A stretch of 64,000 bases of DNA from Candidatus Omnitrophota bacterium (GTDB lineage: Bacteria; Omnitrophota; Gorgyraeia; Zapsychrales; Zapsychraceae): NCBI GenBank assembly GCA_035292445.1, contig DATDQB010000020.1, positions 155,484 through 219,483 of the forward strand. Reading direction: 5' to 3'. Shown one piece after another: positions 570-36,313 of this stretch (the first letter of the stretch is position 1; every line of letters begins with the position of its first letter). The notes beneath the pieces were generated by a model, which worked only from the letters and a program-made list of their open reading frames with translations, did no database searches and was not told the origin of the DNA. Made by a program: the position numbers and the translations under genes.

Positions 570-3500
570 TTATTTTCCCGGCGGGACACATTCATAACAT
601 TTGAGGATAGGACTCTTTCGGGAAGGATGAAAGAGGATCAACCCGACTTCTTCGCAATTCTCTTCCGCTTTGCAGGCTGAACAATCACGGGCATACCCCT
701 CGTCCAAACATTCGGCATCGCCCAACTCGATTGTAACTGGCCTCTTCGGTGCTTCCTGTTTCTTTTCTGCGCATTGATAGCATGTCTCTCCCTGTTTCGT
801 CTTTTGCGCCTCAACGCATTCTTTATTGGCGCTGGCAAGGCAGCTGTTATCGCATTCGCTCTTGCTTAAAGCGCCCAGATCCGCGCAAGCCTCTTGCCGT
901 ACGGCACATGTATAACAGGGCTCCCCTTGTTTGGTTTGTCCCGCGTGAGCGCACTGCGAATCGGGTTTCTGGTTACACGGCGCGCATTCCTGCTCGGACA
1001 AAAGCCCCAGATCGGCACAGGTCTGTGGTATTTCCACACAACTATAACATTGTTGCCCCTGGTTGGTCGCTTGGGCCGTGACGCATTTTTTCGAGGCAAC
1101 GGCCTGGCAGGCGACGCAATCCGCCGCCGTTATCAGCCCTAAATCTTGGCAAATCTGCGGCTTCTCAACGCAATTGAAACATTGTTTGCCTTCGTTCGTC
1201 TTTTGCCCGGGCTGGCATTGCATCTTCGGGTCTTGAGCGCACTGGGCGCATTGTGCTTCATCCAATTGGTTCAGATCCGCGCAGGCTTGCGGTTTATCAA
1301 CGCAGGAATAACACGGCTGGCCTTCTTTGGTAGGCTGGGCCGGCTGGCATTCTTTACGCGGATTTTCATTGCATAAACGGCATTCGGTTTCATTCAAAAG
1401 CCCCAGGTCTTGGCATTGCTGCGGCTTTTCGAGGCAAACATAACATTGGCCGCCCTGTTTGGTTTTATCGCCGAGTTTACATTCCGTTCTCGCGTTTGTC
1501 TCGCACTGGCGGCATTCTTCGTCGCTCAGTTGCCCGATGTCCTGACAGCTTTGCTCTTTCTCGACGAGCTTCTCAACACAAGCATAACATTGCGTTCCTT
1601 CTTTGGTCTGCTTATCCTCGCGGCATTCGGTCTTGGAGTTACGGTTACAGAGTCGGCATTCCCGCTCATCCAACAATTCCAGATCGGCGCAGGTCTGCGG
1701 CTTTTCAATGCAAACAAAACACTGCTTGCCTTCCTTGGTTTTGTCGCCAAATTTACATTCGGCTCTCGCATTCGCTTCGCAATCACGGCACCCTGCCTCA
1801 TCCAATTGAGCAAGGTCCCCGCAGGTTTGCGGCCTATCAACGCAGCTAAAGCATTGCATCCCTTGCTTGGTCTTTTTAGCGCTTTGACATTCTTTCTTCG
1901 CATCCGTTGAACAATTCCCGCAACCGGCTTCATCCAACAATTGCAGATCAGCGCAAGTTTGCGGCCTTTCCACGCAACCGTAACATTGTTTCCCTTCTTT
2001 GGTCTGTTGGGCCGGCTGGCATTCAAAATTTCCTTTTGACGTGCATGATCCACATTGTGTTTCATCAATGAGATCGAGATCTTTGCATTCCTGAGGTTTA
2101 TCTACGCAAACGAAACATGGCAGGCCTTCTTTGGTCTTGTTGCCTTCTTTGCATTCGGTCTTGGAATTGCGGTTGCACAAACGGCATTCGCGTTCATCCA
2201 ATTGCTCCAAGTCAGCGCACGTTTGCGGTCTATCGGCGCAGCTGAAACATTGTTCGCCCTCATTGGTCTTTTGAGCGATCACACATTCTTTTTTCGGATC
2301 AGATTCGCATTGGACGCACGCATCAGCCTCGACCAATCCCAGATCGGCACACACCTGCGGGCGATCCTCGCAGGAGAAACACTGCTGGCCTTCTTTTGTC
2401 CGACGGGAACTGGCGCATTGTTTCTTGGGATCCTGCGTGCAGGAGGCACAATCGCCCTCGCTGATAAGGCCCAGGTCAACGCAGGTTTGCGGCTTTTCAA
2501 CGCAGCTGAAACACTGTTTTCCTTCCTTGGTTGGCTGGGCTGGCTGGCACTCGGCATTCCCTTTGGCCACACATGACTCACATTGCGTTTCATCAATAAG
2601 ATCCAGATCGCGGCATTCCTGAGGCTTATCCACGCAAATAAAACATTGCGCGCCTTCCTTAGTTTTATTACCCTCTTTGCATTCGGTCTTGGAATTGCGG
2701 TTGCATAGCCGGCAGTCACGTTCATCCAATTGCTCCAGATCCACACAGGTCTGCGGCTTATCAATACAACTAAAACAAGCTTCGCCCTCTTCGGTCTTTT
2801 TATCCGGTTTGCATTCCTTGCCGGCCTCGACACACCCGATGCATTGATTGGCATCAATAAGCCCCAAATCGCTGCATGACTGCGGTTTGTCGGCGCAAAC
2901 AAAACATTGCTCCCCTTCATTTGTTATCTTATCGGCTTGGCATATCTTGGCGGGATCGGAAGTACATTCTTGGCATTGCGCTTCATTTAATAAATCCAAA
3001 TCGGCGCATTCCTGCGGGCGCAGTTCACAACTGTAACATTGCATCCCCTCTTTGGTCCTTTGGGAAATAACACAACGTTTTTTTGAATCTCTCTCACATT
3101 TCTTGCATTCATCAATGCTAATAAGTCCGAAATCATCGCAACTTTGCGGTTTTTCGGTACAAACAAAACATTGCCTGCCCTCTTTTGTTTTATTGCCTTC
3201 GTTACATTCCGTGTTGGGTTTTTGAAGGCACCCCTCGCAAGAGGCTTTCTCCAATTGGCCGATATCCGTGCAGGTCTGCGGTTTATCGAGGCAAACAAAA
3301 CACGCTAGCCCTTGTTTGGTTTTCTTATCCGGTTTACATTCCTTATTAGGATCTTCGCCACAAAGCTTGCAGCCAGGCTCATCCAAGAGGTTTAGATCGG
3401 CGCAGGTCTGGAGTTTATCGAGGCATCTGAAGCAGGCTTTGCCTTCTTTGGTCTTTTTGCCGGCGAGGCATTCTTTCGATGGGTCTTTCACGCATTCGGC

Positions 3501-5615
3501 GCACTGATCGGCATCAAGCAAATCAAGATCACGGCACTCCTGCGGTTTGTCAACACAGCTAAAACATGACAGGCCTTCTTTGGTTTTATCGGCTTTCTTA
3601 CATTCTTTCGATTCCTCTGTGCATAAATCACAAAATTCCTCGTCGAAAAACCCGATATCGGCGCAGGTCTGCGGCCGCTCCACGCAGGAATAACACAGCT
3701 CGCCTCCTTCAGTGCTCTTATCGGCCTTGCATTCTTTCTTCTTGTCTGCTTCACAGGAAGAGCAGCCACCCCTGGAAATTAACCCGAGGTCTTCGCATTC
3801 CTGCGGCCTTTGGACGCATTCAAAACATGGCGTGCCTTCCTTTGTTTTCTTCTTGGGCCGGCATTCGCTTCTAGGCTTTTGGGCACACTCCTGGCAGGCA
3901 GCTTCATCCGAAAGCCCCAGGTCAGAACATGTTTCAGGACGGTCCTCACACTCAAAACATGGCTTACCTTCTTTGGTCACTTTATCTTTGACGCATTGCT
4001 TCTTTCGGTTACGCTCGCAAGAAGCGCAATCTTTTTCATCCAACAAATTGAGTTCAGCGCATTCTTGGGATTTCTCAGCGCAAACGTAACACTGTTTGCC
4101 TTCTTTGGTCTTCTGATCCTGACGGCATTCGGTCTTTTTGTTGCGATCGCACGCGGGGCAATCGCCTTTATCGAGCAAGCCTAAATCGACACATTCCTGC
4201 GGCTTATCGACACAGGCAAAGCATTGTTTGTCCTCTTTGGTAGATTCCGCTTGTTTGCACTCTTTGCGCGGGTTTTGTTCGCACGAAACACCGCAATCTT
4301 TCTTATCAAGAAGCCCGATATCGACACATTCCTGCGGCTTATCCACACAAGTAAAACATGGCTTGCCTTCTTTGGTTTTCTGGGCCTCCTTGCACTCGCT
4401 TCTGTTATCTTCTTCGCATTGGGCGCAACCCTTTTGATCAAAAAAGCCGATATCTATGCATTCCTGGGGCCTGTCAACGCAGGCAAAACATGGCTTGCCT
4501 TCTTTGGTTTGCTTGGACGCTTCGCATATCTTCTTGGGATTTTGAGTACAAACAGCGCAATCTTTTTCATCGAGCAACTTCAGGTCAACACACTCCTGCG
4601 GCTTATCGATGCATTTAAAGCACGAGACCCCCTCTTTTATGTTTCTTAAAGGAACACATTGCTTGGAAGGGTCTTTGGCGCAGGATGGGCATTCTTTTTC
4701 GTCGATCAAATCAAGGTCGGCGCATGTTTCGGAGCGCGACACGCACGCGTAACATTGCCTGCCTTCCTTGGTCTGCTGGGCCGGCTGGCATTCCATCTTG
4801 AGATCGCTCGAACACTGCCGGCAATCCTTTCTCTCCAATAAACCAATGTCGGGACACTCTTGCTCTTGCTCCAGGCATTTATAACACTGTTTGCCAGTCT
4901 TTGTTTTCTTGATCTCAACGCACTGTTTATGGCGTGCAATGTTGCAGGCGTCGCATTCTTTCTTATCGATCAAACGCATATCGGCGCATTCGTTGGTGCG
5001 CAAGACGCATTCGAAACATTCCGTGCCGTCTTCCGCTGTTTCTTTCACGACGCATTCCATGAACGGATTGACATTGCAGGCCTTGCATTCGGAGATGGTG
5101 AGCAAACCGAGCTCTTTACAGACGGGTGGTTTCGACTCGCATTGAAAACAGGAATCTCCGTCAATGGTCTTGCGGACAAAAACGCATTCACCGTAAGGGA
5201 TCTTCTGGCACTCGGAGCATTGCCCTTTATCCAGAAGCTTTATTTCGCGGCATTGTTGGCGGCGCTGCAGGCATTCATAGCATTGTTCACCGCTTTTGGT
5301 CTTTAAACTGGGCTGGCAGACGTTTTTGGGGACGTCTTCACATTGACCGCAGTCTTCTCGTTTGATGAGGCCGACTTCTCGGCACGTTTGGGGGGCAGGC
5401 AGCGGGGAAACTTTAGGTTGTCCAAGAGTTTGGCGGGAGGTGGCCAAAGTATCTATTGGGAGTTTCTCCCGCTGCACAAGTGTCGATACGCTATTATTTT
5501 CAAGTTGCTGGAGCGCCTGTGGCCCCGTGGCTGCTCCAGATCTGTCTTCAGCTATTAAAGAGAAAGATATCAGTGAGCAAATAAAAACGACCGCCGCCAA
5601 TTTCGATATCTTCAT
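570..5615 (-). CDS. Giant secreted cysteine-rich tandem-repeat protein (1681 aa). It has an N-terminal signal peptide followed by about 35 copies of a 44-aa repeat with six Cys each. Function unknown.
   Basis: One uninterrupted 5-kb ORF. The N-terminus MKISKLAAVVFICSLISFSLIA is signal-peptide-like. The repeat consensus is roughly PQxCxDLGLLDxxxCxxCxxxxxxxCxxxxKTKEGxxCFxCVDKPQ, repeated throughout. Opposite-strand ORFs in this span are repeat artefacts. Confidence 0.8.
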   Translation of the reverse strand: MKISKLAAVVFICSLISFSLIAEDRSGAATGPQALQQLENNSVSTLVQREKLPIDTLATSRQTLGQPKVSPLPAPQTCREVGLIKREDCGQCEDVPKNVCQPSLKTKSGEQCYECLQRRQQCREIKLLDKGQCSECQKIPYGECVFVRKTIDGDSCFQCESKPPVCKELGLLTISECKACNVNPFMECVVKETAEDGTECFECVLRTNECADMRLIDKKECDACNIARHKQCVEIKKTKTGKQCYKCLEQEQECPDIGLLERKDCRQCSSDLKMECQPAQQTKEGRQCYACVSRSETCADLDLIDEKECPSCAKDPSKQCVPLRNIKEGVSCFKCIDKPQECVDLKLLDEKDCAVCTQNPKKICEASKQTKEGKPCFACVDRPQECIDIGFFDQKGCAQCEEDNRSECKEAQKTKEGKPCFTCVDKPQECVDIGLLDKKDCGVSCEQNPRKECKQAESTKEDKQCFACVDKPQECVDLGLLDKGDCPACDRNKKTECRQDQKTKEGKQCYVCAEKSQECAELNLLDEKDCASCERNRKKQCVKDKVTKEGKPCFECEDRPETCSDLGLSDEAACQECAQKPRSECRPKKKTKEGTPCFECVQRPQECEDLGLISRGGCSSCEADKKKECKADKSTEGGELCYSCVERPQTCADIGFFDEEFCDLCTEESKECKKADKTKEGLSCFSCVDKPQECRDLDLLDADQCAECVKDPSKECLAGKKTKEGKACFRCLDKLQTCADLNLLDEPGCKLCGEDPNKECKPDKKTKQGLACFVCLDKPQTCTDIGQLEKASCEGCLQKPNTECNEGNKTKEGRQCFVCTEKPQSCDDFGLISIDECKKCERDSKKRCVISQRTKEGMQCYSCELRPQECADLDLLNEAQCQECTSDPAKICQADKITNEGEQCFVCADKPQSCSDLGLIDANQCIGCVEAGKECKPDKKTEEGEACFSCIDKPQTCVDLEQLDERDCRLCNRNSKTECKEGNKTKEGAQCFICVDKPQECRDLDLIDETQCESCVAKGNAECQPAQPTKEGKQCFSCVEKPQTCVDLGLISEGDCASCTQDPKKQCASSRRTKEGQQCFSCEDRPQVCADLGLVEADACVQCESDPKKECVIAQKTNEGEQCFSCADRPQTCADLEQLDERECRLCNRNSKTECKEGNKTKEGLPCFVCVDKPQECKDLDLIDETQCGSCTSKGNFECQPAQQTKEGKQCYGCVERPQTCADLQLLDEAGCGNCSTDAKKECQSAKKTKQGMQCFSCVDRPQTCGDLAQLDEAGCRDCEANARAECKFGDKTKEGKQCFVCIEKPQTCADLELLDERECRLCNRNSKTECREDKQTKEGTQCYACVEKLVEKEQSCQDIGQLSDEECRQCETNARTECKLGDKTKQGGQCYVCLEKPQQCQDLGLLNETECRLCNENPRKECQPAQPTKEGQPCYSCVDKPQACADLNQLDEAQCAQCAQDPKMQCQPGQKTNEGKQCFNCVEKPQICQDLGLITAADCVACQAVASKKCVTAQATNQGQQCYSCVEIPQTCADLGLLSEQECAPCNQKPDSQCAHAGQTKQGEPCYTCAVRQEACADLGALSKSECDNSCLASANKECVEAQKTKQGETCYQCAEKKQEAPKRPVTIELGDAECLDEGYARDCSACKAEENCEEVGLILFHPSRKSPILKCYECVPPGK
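755..5375. repeat. Tandem array of about 132-bp (44-codon) direct repeats inside the Cys-rich gene.
   Basis: Periodic recurrence of motifs such as caaacaaaacattg / ttctttggtct / gcattcggtcttgg at about 132-bp spacing on the plus strand. This corresponds to the protein-level repeats. Confidence 0.8.
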
Positions 5616-5668
5616 TGCCCTTCCTTAACTTATTCGTAATCAAGAAAATAAAACTCATTACTCTATAC

Positions 5669-7759
5669 TCACATTCTACTTAAAATATCCTTTGTTTCAA
5701 GTGTTTCAAACGGAATCTCTTTGGGAATGCTCACCGTCAATTTAATTTGGCCAGTGGCCATTAACTCTTCCGACTCGATTTTCATGTAACTCGAAAGCTC
5801 AGCGGCATCTACACCCAACTCAAACGCTAATTCCTTTTGCGCCTCCTCAAGCGTCAGCTTGCGGGCCATGGCATATTTGATCTTATCCGAGGCGCTGACC
5901 ATCTCAAGGGGCTTGGAAATCTTGGTTAAATAAATACGGTTTTCCTGAACTCCCTTTTGCGCCCTGAAATTAAAAACCCCCACCTGATCCAAACCATAAT
6001 TGGCCACATAAATCTTCCCGTTGGCGACCGTTACGCTGGAAAGGCTAGGAAAATAACTGGGTCCCTGGCCGTTGGAGCCGAAATCCATCACCAATTCGCC
6101 GTTGGGATCAATGATCGTCACTTTGTGCCGGCCCCGATCCGCCACGTACAGATAATCATGCTCATCAATGCTTAGATCAACAGGGTCTTCAAATTGTATT
6201 TCCTGGTCCAACAACCCGCCGATCTGGCGGATGAATTCGCCGCCTTTGGTGAAGATCTGGATGCGCCTGTTCCTGCTGTCCAAAACAAATAACCGATCTC
6301 TTGAATCAAAAGCGACCGTTTTAGGGCTTAAGAACGTCCCCGGCGACGGGCCGGCCTCGTTCATTCTTTCTGATTTCTCTCCGAAAGCTTTCAGGTAAAT
6401 ACCGTCTTCGCTGAAGATCTGAATGCGGTTGTTCTTGCTGTCAGCGACATAGATGTTCCCCTGGCTGTCCGCGGCAACCCCGCCCAACGCGTTGAATTCA
6501 CCGGCTTGATCACCGCGCTTACCGAAAAAATAGGTCGGATTCCCTTCCTGGTCCAGAAGCTGAAGCCGATGATTCCCTGTGTCGGCGACCAAAATCCTTC
6601 CTCTGGGATCCACCTCAATGGATCCCGGCCGTTTCAATTGATGTAAATTCTCGTTCAATGGCTGGAACGTTAAATGGGCCGGGTCCTTGATAAGGATTTC
6701 TCCCCGCTTCTCGGCTAAAGCATAAAGCCCTTTTTGCTCGTCATAATTAAGATCAACAACGCTGGGACCGGCATCAATCGAACGATCATAATCAAGAAGG
6801 GGCGGTAAATAGACCGCTGGCTCAAGATTGCCCTTAGGGCTTCCTGTGATCTCCAATACCTGAACGCGCCGATTCCTGGCATCCGCCACATAAACATGAC
6901 CCGTCCGATCCGCCGTGATCCCCGATGGCCAGTTAAACTGTCCTTTACCGTCCCCTTGAGATCCGAAAGAAAACAATAACTTCTTGTTTTGATCGATCTT
7001 TTTGACGCTGTGCGAATCCGTCTCGATCAAATAAATATCCCCTCGCATGTCAACGGAAATACCCGCCGAGCTGGAAATAAGGTCCTTCCCCTCCGCCTTG
7101 AGAGTGATCTGTTCATATTCATATGTCTTCAAATTAAATTTAATGATACGCCCGATGCCCGGCATAAGGACGTAAAGATGCTCGTTAAGATCGAAAACCA
7201 AATCCGTCGGCTTAAAGCTTAACCGTCGGTAATCCAGAAATGCCCCGTTGGGGGAAAACTTGGAAATGGTCTTATTGGTGCTGTCGCCGATATAGATGTT
7301 TCCGATGTTATCAATGGCAATGCTGTCGGGCGATTTAAACTGCCCTTCGTCCTTCCCGTAATGGCCCAGCTGAAAGACAAATTCGCCTTGAGGGCCGAAG
7401 ACCTGCACGCGGCTATTGCCGGTATCCGCTACAACCACGTTTCCCGTTAATGTTAAAGCGACCGCTTTAGGCTGATTGAACTCACCGATATTCGAACCTC
7501 TTTGGCCGAAAGAACTTTTTAATTCCCCCTGTGGATTAAAGACGGATACCTTTGCCTGCTTTCGATCCAGCACATAAATGTCGCCGCTGTCATTGACCGC
7601 GGCATCAATAGGCTCCTGCAGGCCTTCCGTTAATTCCCGTACAAACTTGACCTCTTCAAGCGCCCACGAATCCTGAACATTCAGACCGATAAGACCAATC
7701 GTGAAGGCCAGCAGGAACGAATAGTTTCGGAATATTTTCCTTTGTTTCATAAACCCCAC
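5669..7759 (-). CDS. NHL-repeat beta-propeller protein (about 12 NHL blades) with an N-terminal signal peptide and a C-terminal non-repeat domain.
   Basis: Repeated GxxGxxxGQFxxPxGIAxDxxGxIYVADxxNxRIQxF-type blades (e.g. GQFNWPSGITADRTGHVYVADARNRRVQVL). The N-terminus is hydrophobic. A GGGGTGGGG ribosome-binding site lies 4 nt upstream of the ATG. The gap to the downstream Cys-rich gene is 53 bp, which suggests an operon. Confidence 0.85.
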   Translation of the reverse strand: MGFMKQRKIFRNYSFLLAFTIGLIGLNVQDSWALEEVKFVRELTEGLQEPIDAAVNDSGDIYVLDRKQAKVSVFNPQGELKSSFGQRGSNIGEFNQPKAVALTLTGNVVVADTGNSRVQVFGPQGEFVFQLGHYGKDEGQFKSPDSIAIDNIGNIYIGDSTNKTISKFSPNGAFLDYRRLSFKPTDLVFDLNEHLYVLMPGIGRIIKFNLKTYEYEQITLKAEGKDLISSSAGISVDMRGDIYLIETDSHSVKKIDQNKKLLFSFGSQGDGKGQFNWPSGITADRTGHVYVADARNRRVQVLEITGSPKGNLEPAVYLPPLLDYDRSIDAGPSVVDLNYDEQKGLYALAEKRGEILIKDPAHLTFQPLNENLHQLKRPGSIEVDPRGRILVADTGNHRLQLLDQEGNPTYFFGKRGDQAGEFNALGGVAADSQGNIYVADSKNNRIQIFSEDGIYLKAFGEKSERMNEAGPSPGTFLSPKTVAFDSRDRLFVLDSRNRRIQIFTKGGEFIRQIGGLLDQEIQFEDPVDLSIDEHDYLYVADRGRHKVTIIDPNGELVMDFGSNGQGPSYFPSLSSVTVANGKIYVANYGLDQVGVFNFRAQKGVQENRIYLTKISKPLEMVSASDKIKYAMARKLTLEEAQKELAFELGVDAAELSSYMKIESEELMATGQIKLTVSIPKEIPFETLETKDILSRM

Positions 7760-7784
7760 CCCATCAATAGATTTTTCACAACAA

Positions 7785-7812
7785 AAAAGGCCTATTCCAA
7801 AAGGAATAGGCC
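7785..7812 (-). terminator. Intrinsic terminator hairpin on the minus strand, 26 bp upstream of the NHL start codon. It is the candidate attenuator / expression platform of leader element A.
   Basis: Perfect inverted repeat aggcctattcc aaaa ggaataggcct, followed on the minus strand by TTTTTTGTTGTG. Confidence 0.6.
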
Positions 7813-8130
7813 TTAGCTAGACAGAATCTATCTGTTAAAAAAGATGCTTTGATTCGGCAGCTGGCTATCCCTTTTCAAGGACCCTTCCCCGACGCTTCGG
7901 TCGGGGCCCCGACTTCCTCATTTAATTTTTTCTGAGGAAACGTCGGGGTAGTTTTGCGACCCCGGATTACTCCGCCCCGCTTCGCCGAATTACTTTCGTA
8001 TTCGGCTACGCAGGACGTTCTGCGAAGCTCAAACGTGAAAACTTTTGAGCGAAGCAGAACGGGTGTGCCTTTTTCGTCAAAAAGACGAATTTTTAAAGAA
8101 CTGTTAGAAATTTATCTATCATCAAACAAA
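7785..8130 (-). ncRNA. Structured RNA-like element copy A (about 340 nt). It is a candidate riboswitch, attenuator or sRNA in the 5' leader of the NHL / Cys-rich operon.
   Basis: The minus-strand order is: a conserved 44-nt imperfect hairpin (GUUCUGCUUCGCUCAAAAGUUUUCACGUUUGAGCUUCGCAGAAC); a second hairpin (GCCGAAU..AUUCGGC); GC-rich stems (CCCCGAC/GUCGGGG twice); the conserved stretch GGAUAGCCAGCUGCCGAAUCAAA; then the terminator. It is paralogous to copy B, with compensatory substitutions between the two. Confidence 0.4.
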
Positions 8131-8139
8131 AAGCCTGTC

Positions 8140-8375
8140 CGCACATAAATAGAGGACAGGCCTTGAACGTCTTTCTTGCTGTTTTGATTCGGCAACTGGC
8201 TATCCTCGTGAAAGGACCCTATTAGCTTTGCGTCCCTGAGTTACCCCGCTCTACTACGCCAAATACTTAACGTATTTGGCTTCGAAGAGCGTTCTGCGAA
8301 GCTCAAACGTGAAAACTTTTGAGCGAAGCAGAACAGGTTTGCTATTATCGTCAAAAACAATGAGCAACTGACACC
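8140..8375 (-). ncRNA. Structured RNA-like element copy B (about 235 nt), a tandem paralogue of copy A.
   Basis: It shares the identical 44-nt 5' hairpin with copy A. Its second hairpin is GCCAAAUAC..GUAUUUGGC against GCCGAAU..AUUCGGC in copy A, i.e. compensatory changes. It also shares the GGAUAGCCAG(U/C)UGCCGAAUCAAA block, and ends in its own terminator hairpin cctgtcc..ggacagg plus a U-run (8147-8172, minus strand). Confidence 0.4.
8147..8172 (-). terminator. Intrinsic terminator hairpin of element B, on the minus strand.
   Basis: cctgtccgcacataaatagaggacagg, followed on the minus strand by CUUUUUGUUUG. Confidence 0.5.
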
Positions 8376-8475
8376 TAATGGAAGTATAAACTATGCCCGG
8401 CTAAAATGCAAATGATCGGAGGAAACTTCATTTAACACACCCAAATAAATCAGTACCCGTTTGACTTAACGCATT

Positions 8476-34415: not shown

Positions 34416-34511
34416 ATCATGCTTGGTGGCATTTTGGTTTCCCTAAATTTATGGTAACCAAAATACCACTTAAACTCGGGTTCGCCCTATGGGCTCACCC
34501 TCGTATTTAAG

Positions 34512-34901
34512 TGGAGGTGCCGGGAATCGAACCCGGGTCCTCAAGTAACTTTCTAAAAGCCTCTACATGCTTAGACTGTTTTTAAGTTTCGTCCTGATTT
34601 TCTAAACAGACAAACGGACCAGGACCAGCCTTTAGGATCTCGCCCACATGAATAAGGCGTTCATATGAGCCAGCCTGCCAATGACCTTATTGCCCGCTCA
34701 CAGGCTAAGCAAGCATAAGGGCGCTGCGCTATTAGGCAGCGACTGTTTCGCCAGCGAAAATCGGGTTAACGATTTCGTTAGCTTGGGCTAAGATTGAATC
34801 TTCGCCGTTTAATTGGTGCTTGGGCTGATTAACGAGGCCAACCAAGCGTCCTCGGCATGCCACTGATAGTCCATCGACTCAAGTCGAGACCGATCACCCC
34901 C
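34512..34901 (-). ncRNA. ssrA: tmRNA (SsrA), one-piece, about 390 nt. The 3' CCA is not encoded.
   Basis: 5' GGGGGUGAUCGGUCUCGAC... and 3' ...GGACCCGGGUUCGAUUCCCGGCACCUCCA form the tRNA-like domain. Internal GCAUGCCGAGG and UUGGCCUCG elements are present. The tag ORF ...GCU AAC GAA AUC GUU AAC CCG AUU UUC GCU GGC GAA ACA GUC GCU GCC UAA UAG gives (A)NEIVNPIFAGETVAA followed by two stops. Confidence 0.9.
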
Positions 34902-36231: not shown

Positions 36232-36313
36232 GCGGAAGTGGTGGAATTGGTAGACACGCAGGTCTCAGAAGCCTGTGCTTCACGGCATGAGAGTTCAAGT
36301 CTCTCCTTCCGCA
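36232..36313 (+). tRNA. tRNA-Leu (anticodon CAG), type II with a long variable arm.
   Basis: Acceptor GCGGAAG/CUUCCGC plus discriminator A. Anticodon stem CAGGU/GCCUG with loop CUCAGAA. T arm GAGAG-UUCAAGU-CUCUC. Confidence 0.9.

Follow-up and report, generated by a model that had tools for sequence, protein, structure and literature searches.

Among riboswitches in tandem, those of the c-di-GMP-I class occur most often, as 347 doublets and 12 triplets (Sherlock et al. 2022, PMC9481103); an example comes from Bacillus thuringiensis (Bc3-5, PMC4759541). In the Vc2 aptamer, G20 reads G-alpha of cyclic di-GMP (c-di-GMP) and C92 pairs with G-beta (PMC6140456). G20A variants bind cyclic GMP-AMP (cGAMP) or both ligands (PMC6140456, PMC9481103). 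Here, we describe a pair of such riboswitches in a 64,000-nucleotide (nt) stretch of DNA, called the window below, from a Candidatus Omnitrophota metagenome-assembled genome (GenBank assembly GCA_035292445.1, contig DATDQB010000020.1). They lie in the 716-nt intergenic region 7760-8475, between a minus-strand NHL gene (start 7750) and a plus-strand AI-2E transporter gene (8476). The region contains two paralogous minus-strand units, B (8356-8128, ~229 nt) and A (8082-7781, ~302 nt), and both are complete c-di-GMP-I (GEMM-I, RF01051) riboswitches in series. It is probable that they form one leader RNA, with an 87-nt repeat in helix P2 of each riboswitch, and that this leader controls an operon of the NHL gene and a gene for a Cys-rich protein. 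This is a known class in a known tandem arrangement; the unusual part is the repeat-derived four-way junction in P2.

The locus had been picked out by a sequence-only reading, which described tandem minus-strand units ending in terminators before the NHL/Cys-rich operon. That layout was confirmed; the units measure ~302 nt (A) and ~229 nt (B), where ~340 and ~235 nt had been proposed. However, the reading recognised no known riboswitch class and let each unit begin with a 44-nt hairpin. Homology between the units begins 23 nt upstream of this hairpin, where each reads UUUUGACGA(U/A)AA(U/A)(A/G)GCA.AC. The true 5' half of the aptamers is found there (UUUUUGACGAUAAUAGCAAACCU in copy B, UUUUUGACGAAAAAGGCACACCC in copy A), and the remaining aptamer blocks of both copies sit downstream of a second hairpin. 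A pattern scan of one-genome-per-species contigs revealed about 12 canonical Omnitrophota GEMM-I RNAs, for example ACGAAAAUGGCAAACCUGGGGCAACCCAGGGACGCAAAGCUAAAGGGUCC..GGAUAGCCAGUUGCCGAAUCGAAAA followed by a terminator. The blocks common to them are ACGA.AA.GGCAAAC, GACGCAAA(G/A)CUA.AGGGUCC and GGAUAGCCAG(U/C)UGCCGAA. The conserved blocks GGCAAA, GACGCAAAGC and AGCC...GCCGAA have their counterparts in both units, as AGCAAA, GACGCAAAGC and GAUAGCCAGUUGCCGAA in B and as GGCACA, GUCGCAAAAC and GAUAGCCAGCUGCCGAA in A. The block GGAUAGCCAG(C/U)UGCCGAAUCAAA, which the sequence-only reading had reported as shared, is indeed present in both copies.

When the insertions were removed, both spliced copies aligned over their full length with 19 canonical GEMM-I RNAs. 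All 24 consensus pairs are formed in spliced B and 23 of the 24 in spliced A. On this alignment, the consensus structure is 84% paired, better than all shuffles and slid registers, and P2 is 95% paired across the alignment with double changes at 6/6 pairs. Splicing restores perfect P2 hairpins, CCUGGG-GUAA-CUCAGG in B and CCCGGA-GUAA-UCCGGG in A, which differ by two double compensatory changes (CCU.GGG/CUC.AGG vs CCC.GGA/UCC.GGG). The aptamer of B, with its insertion in P2, occupies 8182-8356 on the minus strand and consists of the P1 5' strand (UUUUGA, 8356-8351), an A at the position of G20 (8343), GC (8342-8341), P2a (CCU, 8337-8335), P2b (GGG-GUAA-CUC-AGG, 8247-8235), GACGCAAAG (8234-8226), P3 (8226-8194), GCCGAA (8193-8188) and the P1 3' strand (UCAAAA, 8187-8182). 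The aptamer of A, with insertions in P2 and P3, occupies 7847-8082 on the same strand and consists of the P1 5' strand (8082-8077), a G at the position of G20 (8069), GC (8068-8067), P2a (CCC, 8063-8061), P2b (GGA-GUAA-UCC-GGG, 7973-7961), GUCGCAAAA (7960-7952), P3 (7952-7859), GCCGAA (7858-7853) and the P1 3' strand (UCAAAG, 7852-7847). The two complete aptamers (8356-8182, 8082-7847) have their own terminators and precede one operon, with no promoter-like site on the minus strand between them.

An nhmmer profile of the canonical set scored copy B at 60.8 bits when spliced versus 45.9 bits when contiguous, and copy A at 66.4 bits when spliced versus 23.9 + 10.5 bits when unspliced. The spliced scores cover model positions 6-94 and the contiguous alignments begin at model position 30; therefore, the GGCG.A segment that Rfam takes as a pseudo 5' half contributes nothing. 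R1, a covariance model from the canonical set only, gave 47.2 bits (E 5e-15) for the 3' part of B, 27.1 bits (E 3e-8) for the 3' part of A and 9.6 bits for the 5' part of A, and it found no further GEMM-I in the window beyond A and B. In the Rfam search at E-value threshold, the single relevant match was RF01051 on contiguous copy B (30.4 bits, E 0.0016), which carries a false 5' half and lies below the gathering score of 35 bits. Contiguous copy A had no Rfam match. Two other models were rejected. A covariance model bridging the insertion failed and split each copy into halves. A short aptamer model, with the 3' strand of the second hairpin (AUUYGGC-GNA) as 5' half plus P1, as in the Rfam alignment, gave no profile gain and left P2 with 3 pairs, and the real 5' half lies upstream.

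In both aptamers, the P2 5' strand is interrupted after the third base pair by an 87-nt insertion, located at 8248-8334 in B (minimum free energy (MFE) -41 kcal/mol, z -7.5 against shuffles) and at 7974-8060 in A (-44.5 kcal/mol, z -6.7). These insertions are the two hairpins that the sequence-only reading had placed at the core of the element; they lie outside the riboswitch consensus. The first hairpin, H1 (GUUCUGCUUCGCUCAAAAGUUUUCACGUUUGAGCUUCGCAGAAC), is of a 'U-type' with a UUC/UUC internal loop. As had been noted, it is identical in the two copies: it occurs exactly twice on the minus strand, at 8334-8291 in B and 8060-8017 in A, with 0 mismatches and 0 expected from shuffles. The second, H2ext (43 nt), lies at 8290-8248 in B, where it is of a 'G-type' with a GAA/GUA internal loop, and at 8016-7974 in A. 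The two H2ext are 70% identical, with compensatory changes. Hairpin 2 as first described pairs GCCGAAU..AUUCGGC in one copy and GCCAAAUAC..GUAUUUGGC in the other, and its compensatory nature was borne out by one G-C to A-U double change, with more in the extended 43-nt hairpin. Because the 87-nt element self-folds into two abutting hairpins, P2 becomes a perfect four-way junction and its GNRA-capped end can still form. Unconstrained MFE folding of the unspliced aptamers gives P1 (UUUUGA/UCAAAA in B) and this perfect four-way junction, P2a-H1-H2ext-P2b.

The ends of the 87-nt element are also inverted repeats of each other: in A, 12/12 positions (three as G.U) pair between the H1 5' arm and the H2ext 3' arm, and in B, 11/12 do. 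A single long hairpin was rejected as the main fold, being 5-7 kcal/mol less stable than the two-hairpin form. The two-hairpin fold is supported by the outer stem of the second module, which covaries independently in the wider family (CUAC/GUAG, CUUC/GAAG, CUCC/GGAG). H1 is 44/44 identical between the copies versus 70-78% for other segments, for which the chance is ~6e-6 at 24% divergence; selection, gene conversion and homing-type homogenisation are possible causes. The flanks read CCU before and GGG after an insertion that runs G...C, which gives no callable target-site duplication, and the riboswitches of two related loci described below (L001, L003) are 'empty sites' only at great evolutionary distance. 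H1 was also considered as a sigma-54 promoter, an attC site, a k-turn, a CRISPR repeat and a self-cleaving ribozyme; spacing or consensus was unfit by inspection and nothing was found in Rfam. Copy A has a further 62-nt insertion in the internal loop of P3 (7887-7948, minus strand), made of two hairpins sharing the stem CCCCGAC/GUCGGGG (z -6.3). This stem was found 14 times in 669 kb of the repeat-bearing metagenome loci listed (including L052, L065, L066, L086, L091, L095, L107 and L148) versus 0 times in 280 kb of control loci.

GEMM-I riboswitches were also found directly upstream of NHL homologs (44-49% identity) in other genomes, using R1. In L001, two GEMM-I stand in tandem (86.1 and 78.9 bits), both ending in a terminator with (A)CCUAUC(C) as 5' arm, followed by a ribosome-binding site and start codon. 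L003 and L004 have one GEMM-I (76.7 bits) upstream of the NHL homolog. L002 has one (3718-3960, 26.8 bits) with a normal P2 and with hairpin insertions of 57 nt between GAC and GC and of 39 nt before UGCCGAA. Since these are two other sites, the invasion of GEMM-I by hairpins is recurrent. The 87-nt insertion is absent from the homologous leaders L001-L004. Thus, the riboswitch-operon link, and even the tandem layout, is conserved, and the 87-nt insertion is not; of the conservation in related genomes that the sequence-only reading had called for, the aptamer upstream of NHL homologs supplies one part and the hairpins, absent there, do not supply the other. In L001, a called 138-amino-acid (aa) 'gene' (3622-4038) overlaps the tandem GEMM-I and terminators and is probably a false gene call.

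The hairpins belong to a repeat family found in genomes of the Omnitrophota type, with the core CUGC-UUC-GCUC / GAGC-UUC-GCAG. A metagenome scan with the H1 core (CTGCTTCGCTC, 10-30 nt, GAGCTTCGCAG) found it in at least 119 stretches, with at least 134 matches and at least 98 distinct inner sequences. A G-type second hairpin, with GAA/GAA internal loops and inverse to the first, follows the U-type in at least 33 cases, as in the window, and locus L160 has a module almost identical to hairpin 2 of copy B. In at least 17 loci, the hairpin begins 1-3 nt past the 3' end of a transfer RNA (tRNA) or transfer-messenger RNA (tmRNA), with tRNAs of at least 10 specificities (e.g., L059 847-884, L061 740-781, L153 897-932, L157 8318 and 8755). 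Arrays also occur: five copies in L046, three copies with 79-nt spacing in L048, and four copies with repeated partial tRNA 3' ends in L086. Within the window there are no further copies beyond the two. No match to the H1 core was found in 2.9 M viral contigs, no hairpins in ~250 kb of other Omnitrophota loci, no other riboswitch bearing the H1 core among the at least 119 metagenome loci listed, and no family covering the hairpins in Rfam 15. Literature text searches returned no description of the hairpin family or of repeats inserted in riboswitch aptamers, and nothing relevant for GIY-YIG with tRNA or palindromic repeats or for COG2827/YhbQ. A match to a repetitive or mobile element, which the sequence-only reading had named as a point that would tell against it, thus holds for the two hairpins, not for the riboswitch as a whole.

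A stand-alone gene for a ~80-aa GIY-YIG nuclease (PF01541, E 2e-13 to 2e-17) lies ~20-370 nt from the hairpin in 14 of the 119 loci listed (L053, L054, L061, L081, L082, L090, L094, L096, L100, L119, L128, L130, L149 and L153), and every GIY-YIG match in the listed loci is within ~370 nt of a hairpin. Typically, the 3' end of a tRNA or tmRNA is followed by the U-type hairpin, then by the GIY-YIG gene, an inverted copy of a hairpin arm and finally the G-type hairpin (L128 4500-4900; L149); in these two loci, inverted repeats flank the gene immediately behind a tRNA. Named homologs of the GIY-YIG protein are nearly all from Omnitrophota, and the window itself contains no GIY-YIG gene. A mobile-element origin of the hairpin family is most likely, because it sits directly after tRNA/tmRNA genes and beside small GIY-YIG genes. 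The hairpins resemble REP/BIME/REPIN, Correia, ERIC, RPE and other miniature inverted-repeat transposable elements in that they form a ~90-nt self-folding double palindrome with many copies across genomes, can fold as two hairpins or as one long hairpin, and have a nuclease gene beside 'full' copies. Furthermore, as with palindromic repeats and intervening sequences of ribosomal RNA, the insertion lies inside a helix of a structured RNA whose fold survives. They differ in that a small GIY-YIG nuclease gene takes the place of one for a RAYT/HUH or DDE transposase, and in that the family strongly prefers the site just after tRNA/tmRNA 3' ends. Some further observations concern the same repeats. 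In an abundant freshwater lineage (lake contigs L043, L045, L049, L051, L052, L065 and similar), the inverse GAA-type hairpin either directly precedes prepilin-type (..AFTLIELL..) genes or lies inside the gene start, and a duplicated 16-nt motif, ttcgcacattaaaacc, precedes the hairpin there. The tmRNA (34509-34901, minus strand, 166.6 bits) and a tRNA (36232-36313, plus strand) of the window have no hairpin repeat after them, unlike such genes elsewhere. In L060, a group I intron (3676-3895, minus strand, 101 bits) lies ~1.6 kb from the hairpin repeat, with no obvious link.

Both copies retain CGCAAA (containing A47) and GCCGAA (containing C92) intact. At the position equivalent to G20 of Vc2, the base 5' of the GC/GC helix, copy A has G (8069) and copy B has A (AAUAGCAAAC, 8343); Vc2 numbering was mapped to the alignment columns by inference from this helix. 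A at this position is a known natural variant and also occurs in L008 and L021. Both aptamers would bind ligand. Because the G20 position differs, the two units may respond to two related ligands, c-di-GMP in copy A and c-di-GMP or 3',3'-cGAMP in copy B, but A at this position alone is no proof of cGAMP selectivity. Copy B is in this respect similar to the c-AMP-GMP riboswitches (GEMM-Ib), as its A corresponds to A14 of Gs1761 (PMC6140456, PMC9481103), although the host here is no Geobacter-type exoelectrogen. Both copies share with RF01051 the conserved blocks, the P1a/P2/P3 three-helix fold with GNRA-capped P2, the equivalents of A47 and C92, the site in a 5' leader, the terminator-type expression platform and the control of genes for surface or secreted proteins. 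They differ from it in the four-way junction in P2 (87 nt), in the P3 insertion of copy A (62 nt) and in their sub-threshold contiguous scores. Like known tandem c-di-GMP-I riboswitches, they are two riboswitches of the same class with their own terminators before one operon, of which L001 is a plain version; in contrast to them, the two aptamers differ at a ligand-contacting base (A vs G) and share a foreign insertion.

Each unit ends, as had been proposed, in its own hairpin with a U-run. Terminator B (8128-8164, minus strand; inverted repeat I8, RNAfold) has an 8-base-pair (bp) stem, GCCUGUCC/GGACAGGC, a 13-nt loop and U5; the terminator scan missed it because its loop is longer than 8 nt. 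Terminator A (7781-7814, minus strand) has a 12-bp stem with 6 G-C pairs, a 4-nt UUUU loop and U6. Downstream of the P1 3' strand, the terminator starts after 17 nt in B and 32 nt in A, without overlap with the aptamer. In A, B, L027 and L034, folds that end before the terminator 3' arm have the terminator 5' arm paired to the P3 3' strand and adjacent loop bases. This candidate antiterminator pairs GAGGAUAGCC with GGCCUGUCCUC in B and AAAAGGGAUAGCC (which pairs with the terminator 5' arm and loop) with GGCCUAUUCCUUUU in A, and the duplexes reach -15.1 kcal/mol in B and -14.3 kcal/mol in A versus -6.6 +/- 2.5 kcal/mol for shuffled arms. In the proposed mechanism, without ligand the P3 3' strand (GGAUAGCC plus adjacent loop bases) would pair with the terminator 5' arm as an antiterminator and allow read-through, and with ligand the aptamer would hold P3, so that the terminator could form and transcription would stop. 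Two such OFF switches in series would give a steeper or tighter response. This OFF polarity, deduced from the pairing potential of the leader, is somewhat favoured. We also observed that the 5' part of aptamer A contains a segment, ACGAAAAAGGC (8067-8077), complementary to GCCUUUUUUGU (7781-7791) from the 3' side and U-tract of terminator A. In the full-length MFE fold, this pairing takes the place of P1. It may reflect no more than an A-run meeting a U-run by chance, or it may belong to the switch.

Several points weigh against the reading as two working riboswitches that terminate upon ligand binding. Neither contiguous copy reaches the Rfam gathering score, although the 87-nt insertion, which the model is unable to bridge, accounts for this. 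The single consensus pair missing in copy A is an A.C in P3, present also in L035 and L036, and the same copy departs from near-invariant positions with GCACA for GCAAA and GUC for GAC. P2 carries a GUAA (GNRA) tetraloop in both copies, but these, like most Omnitrophota members in the alignment, lack the classical 11-nt receptor (CUAAG..UAUG) for it in P3. Covariation at the exact locus comes from the two paralogs alone, because there are no close relatives (the closest NHL homolog is merely 49% identical) and no strain variation; a search for strain variants found all assemblies identical. In the full-length MFE folds, aptamer and terminator coexist. Several relatives lack the antiterminator complementarity, and as a general covarying feature the antiterminator was not significant among 14 related riboswitches (permutation of cognate vs non-cognate arms, p = 0.14). 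This last result is also consistent with the opposite polarity, in which termination is prevented once ligand is bound, as for the Geobacter cGAMP riboswitches and many of the c-di-GMP-I class; many characterised riboswitches of the c-di-GMP-I and c-AMP-GMP types have been predicted to be ON switches (PMC9481103). We consider an ON switch rather doubtful here, because a bound aptamer cannot exclude terminators that start 17 and 32 nt past P1 without overlap, and the P3 3' strand was the one strong alternative partner found for the terminator 5' arm. The large insertions (87 nt in P2, 62 nt in P3), the scores under the Rfam threshold, the three departures of copy A and the formation of both terminators in full-length folds would also suit disabled relics, namely GEMM-I descendants inactivated by palindromic repeats, whose leader would be a constitutive double terminator/attenuator or nothing. 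Such decay is improbable. The copies have diverged by ~24% (aptamer segments 76-78% identical), but neither has lost any ligand-contacting or near-invariant block, and two double compensatory changes distinguish their P2a/P2b, the parts that the insertion separates. Helices of the insertion itself close it off into a perfect four-way junction with no unpaired linker, both terminators and the candidate antiterminator complementarity are kept, and L002 shows that the riboswitch tolerates hairpin insertions at other sites.

If the two copies are GEMM-I riboswitches in series, the 87-nt double hairpin could be a neutral passenger or a selected module, for example a protein-binding or RNase-processing site or a gate on P2, that adds a second input beside the cyclic dinucleotide. 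The complete identity of H1 (44/44, with 70-78% elsewhere) would fit a selected module, but gene conversion or homing-type homogenisation explains it as well. H2ext keeps its pairing by compensatory and G.U changes that work solely in the minus-strand RNA, the order of U-type then G-type relative to transcription is constant among the family matches listed, and in one subfamily the apical loop YUUUCR stays the same while the stems beneath it covary. On the other hand, the same modules occur in unrelated contexts, that is, after tRNAs, in arrays and beside GIY-YIG genes, and the orthologous riboswitches work without the insertion. The 3' strand of hairpin 2, AUUYGGC, is complementary to the aptamer segment GCCGAAU; however, this match may be coincidental, because the GCCAAA/UUUGGC stem is a family variant in L082, L093, L145 and L160. 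Overall, a selected module seems unlikely. A more far-reaching version, to which we likewise give little weight, is that the double hairpin belongs to an undescribed class of small mobile elements, made up of hairpin ends and an 80-aa GIY-YIG nuclease, that targets helices or 3' ends of genes for structured RNAs (tRNAs, tmRNAs and riboswitch stems among them) and has here become a domesticated aptamer arm, with H1 as a binding or processing site adding a second input to a two-aptamer c-di-GMP/cGAMP gate. Finally, the units could be a new riboswitch class or duplicated small RNA genes, with the 44-nt hairpin and the covarying second hairpin as the core. In favour of this, the region has no Rfam match at or above threshold, the hairpins fold strongly, and with one terminator per unit short terminated RNAs would be made. 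Nevertheless, what remains of each unit is unmistakably a GEMM-I aptamer, and the hairpins are absent from homologous leaders and present in at least 119 unrelated loci as a repeat, which makes this explanation highly improbable.

The operon assigned to the tandem GEMM-I leader (570-7750, minus strand) contains two genes, and GEMM-I lies upstream of homologous operons. The first gene (7750-5669, minus strand) encodes an NHL-repeat beta-propeller protein with a signal peptide (Pfam NHL, E 1.7e-57). The second (5615-570, minus strand) encodes a 1681-aa secreted Cys-rich repeat protein with 217 Cys (13%), 70 CxxC, a repeat period of ~44 aa and no CxxCH or other haem motifs, and it has no Pfam match. 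Giant proteins like this one also accompany the NHL homologs of L002 (after it, >2252 aa) and L003 (before it, 1357+ aa). A candidate sigma-70 promoter for the whole leader lies at 8383-8412 on the minus strand (TTTGCA, 18-nt spacer, TATACT; 9/12 matches in the consensus scan alone), and the same scan found no comparable minus-strand site between units B and A. The units are related by direct repeats of 135 nt at 81% identity (7949-8083 / 8223-8357) and of 41 nt at 83% identity (7845-7885 / 8180-8220). The tandem is no assembly artefact, because an 851-nt region is 100% identical in four independent assemblies (three from ENA, one from JGI). Two Logan assemblies (L041, L042) stop 295 and 232 nt upstream of the NHL gene, inside the tandem repeat, which is typical of repeat-induced contig breakage.

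The two riboswitches are invisible at the curated Rfam threshold because a repeat sits inside a stem, and split aptamers of this kind are probably under-counted in uncultured phyla. The copies are a natural test of how far GEMM-I tolerates a four-way junction in P2, and the A/G difference at a ligand-contacting base is a possible natural two-input OFF gate for c-di-GMP and cGAMP. The hairpin family at tRNA/tmRNA 3' ends, together with the stand-alone GIY-YIG genes, may be an undescribed small mobile element. For the Omnitrophota, the locus ties cyclic-dinucleotide signalling to a conserved operon of an NHL propeller and a giant Cys-rich surface protein.

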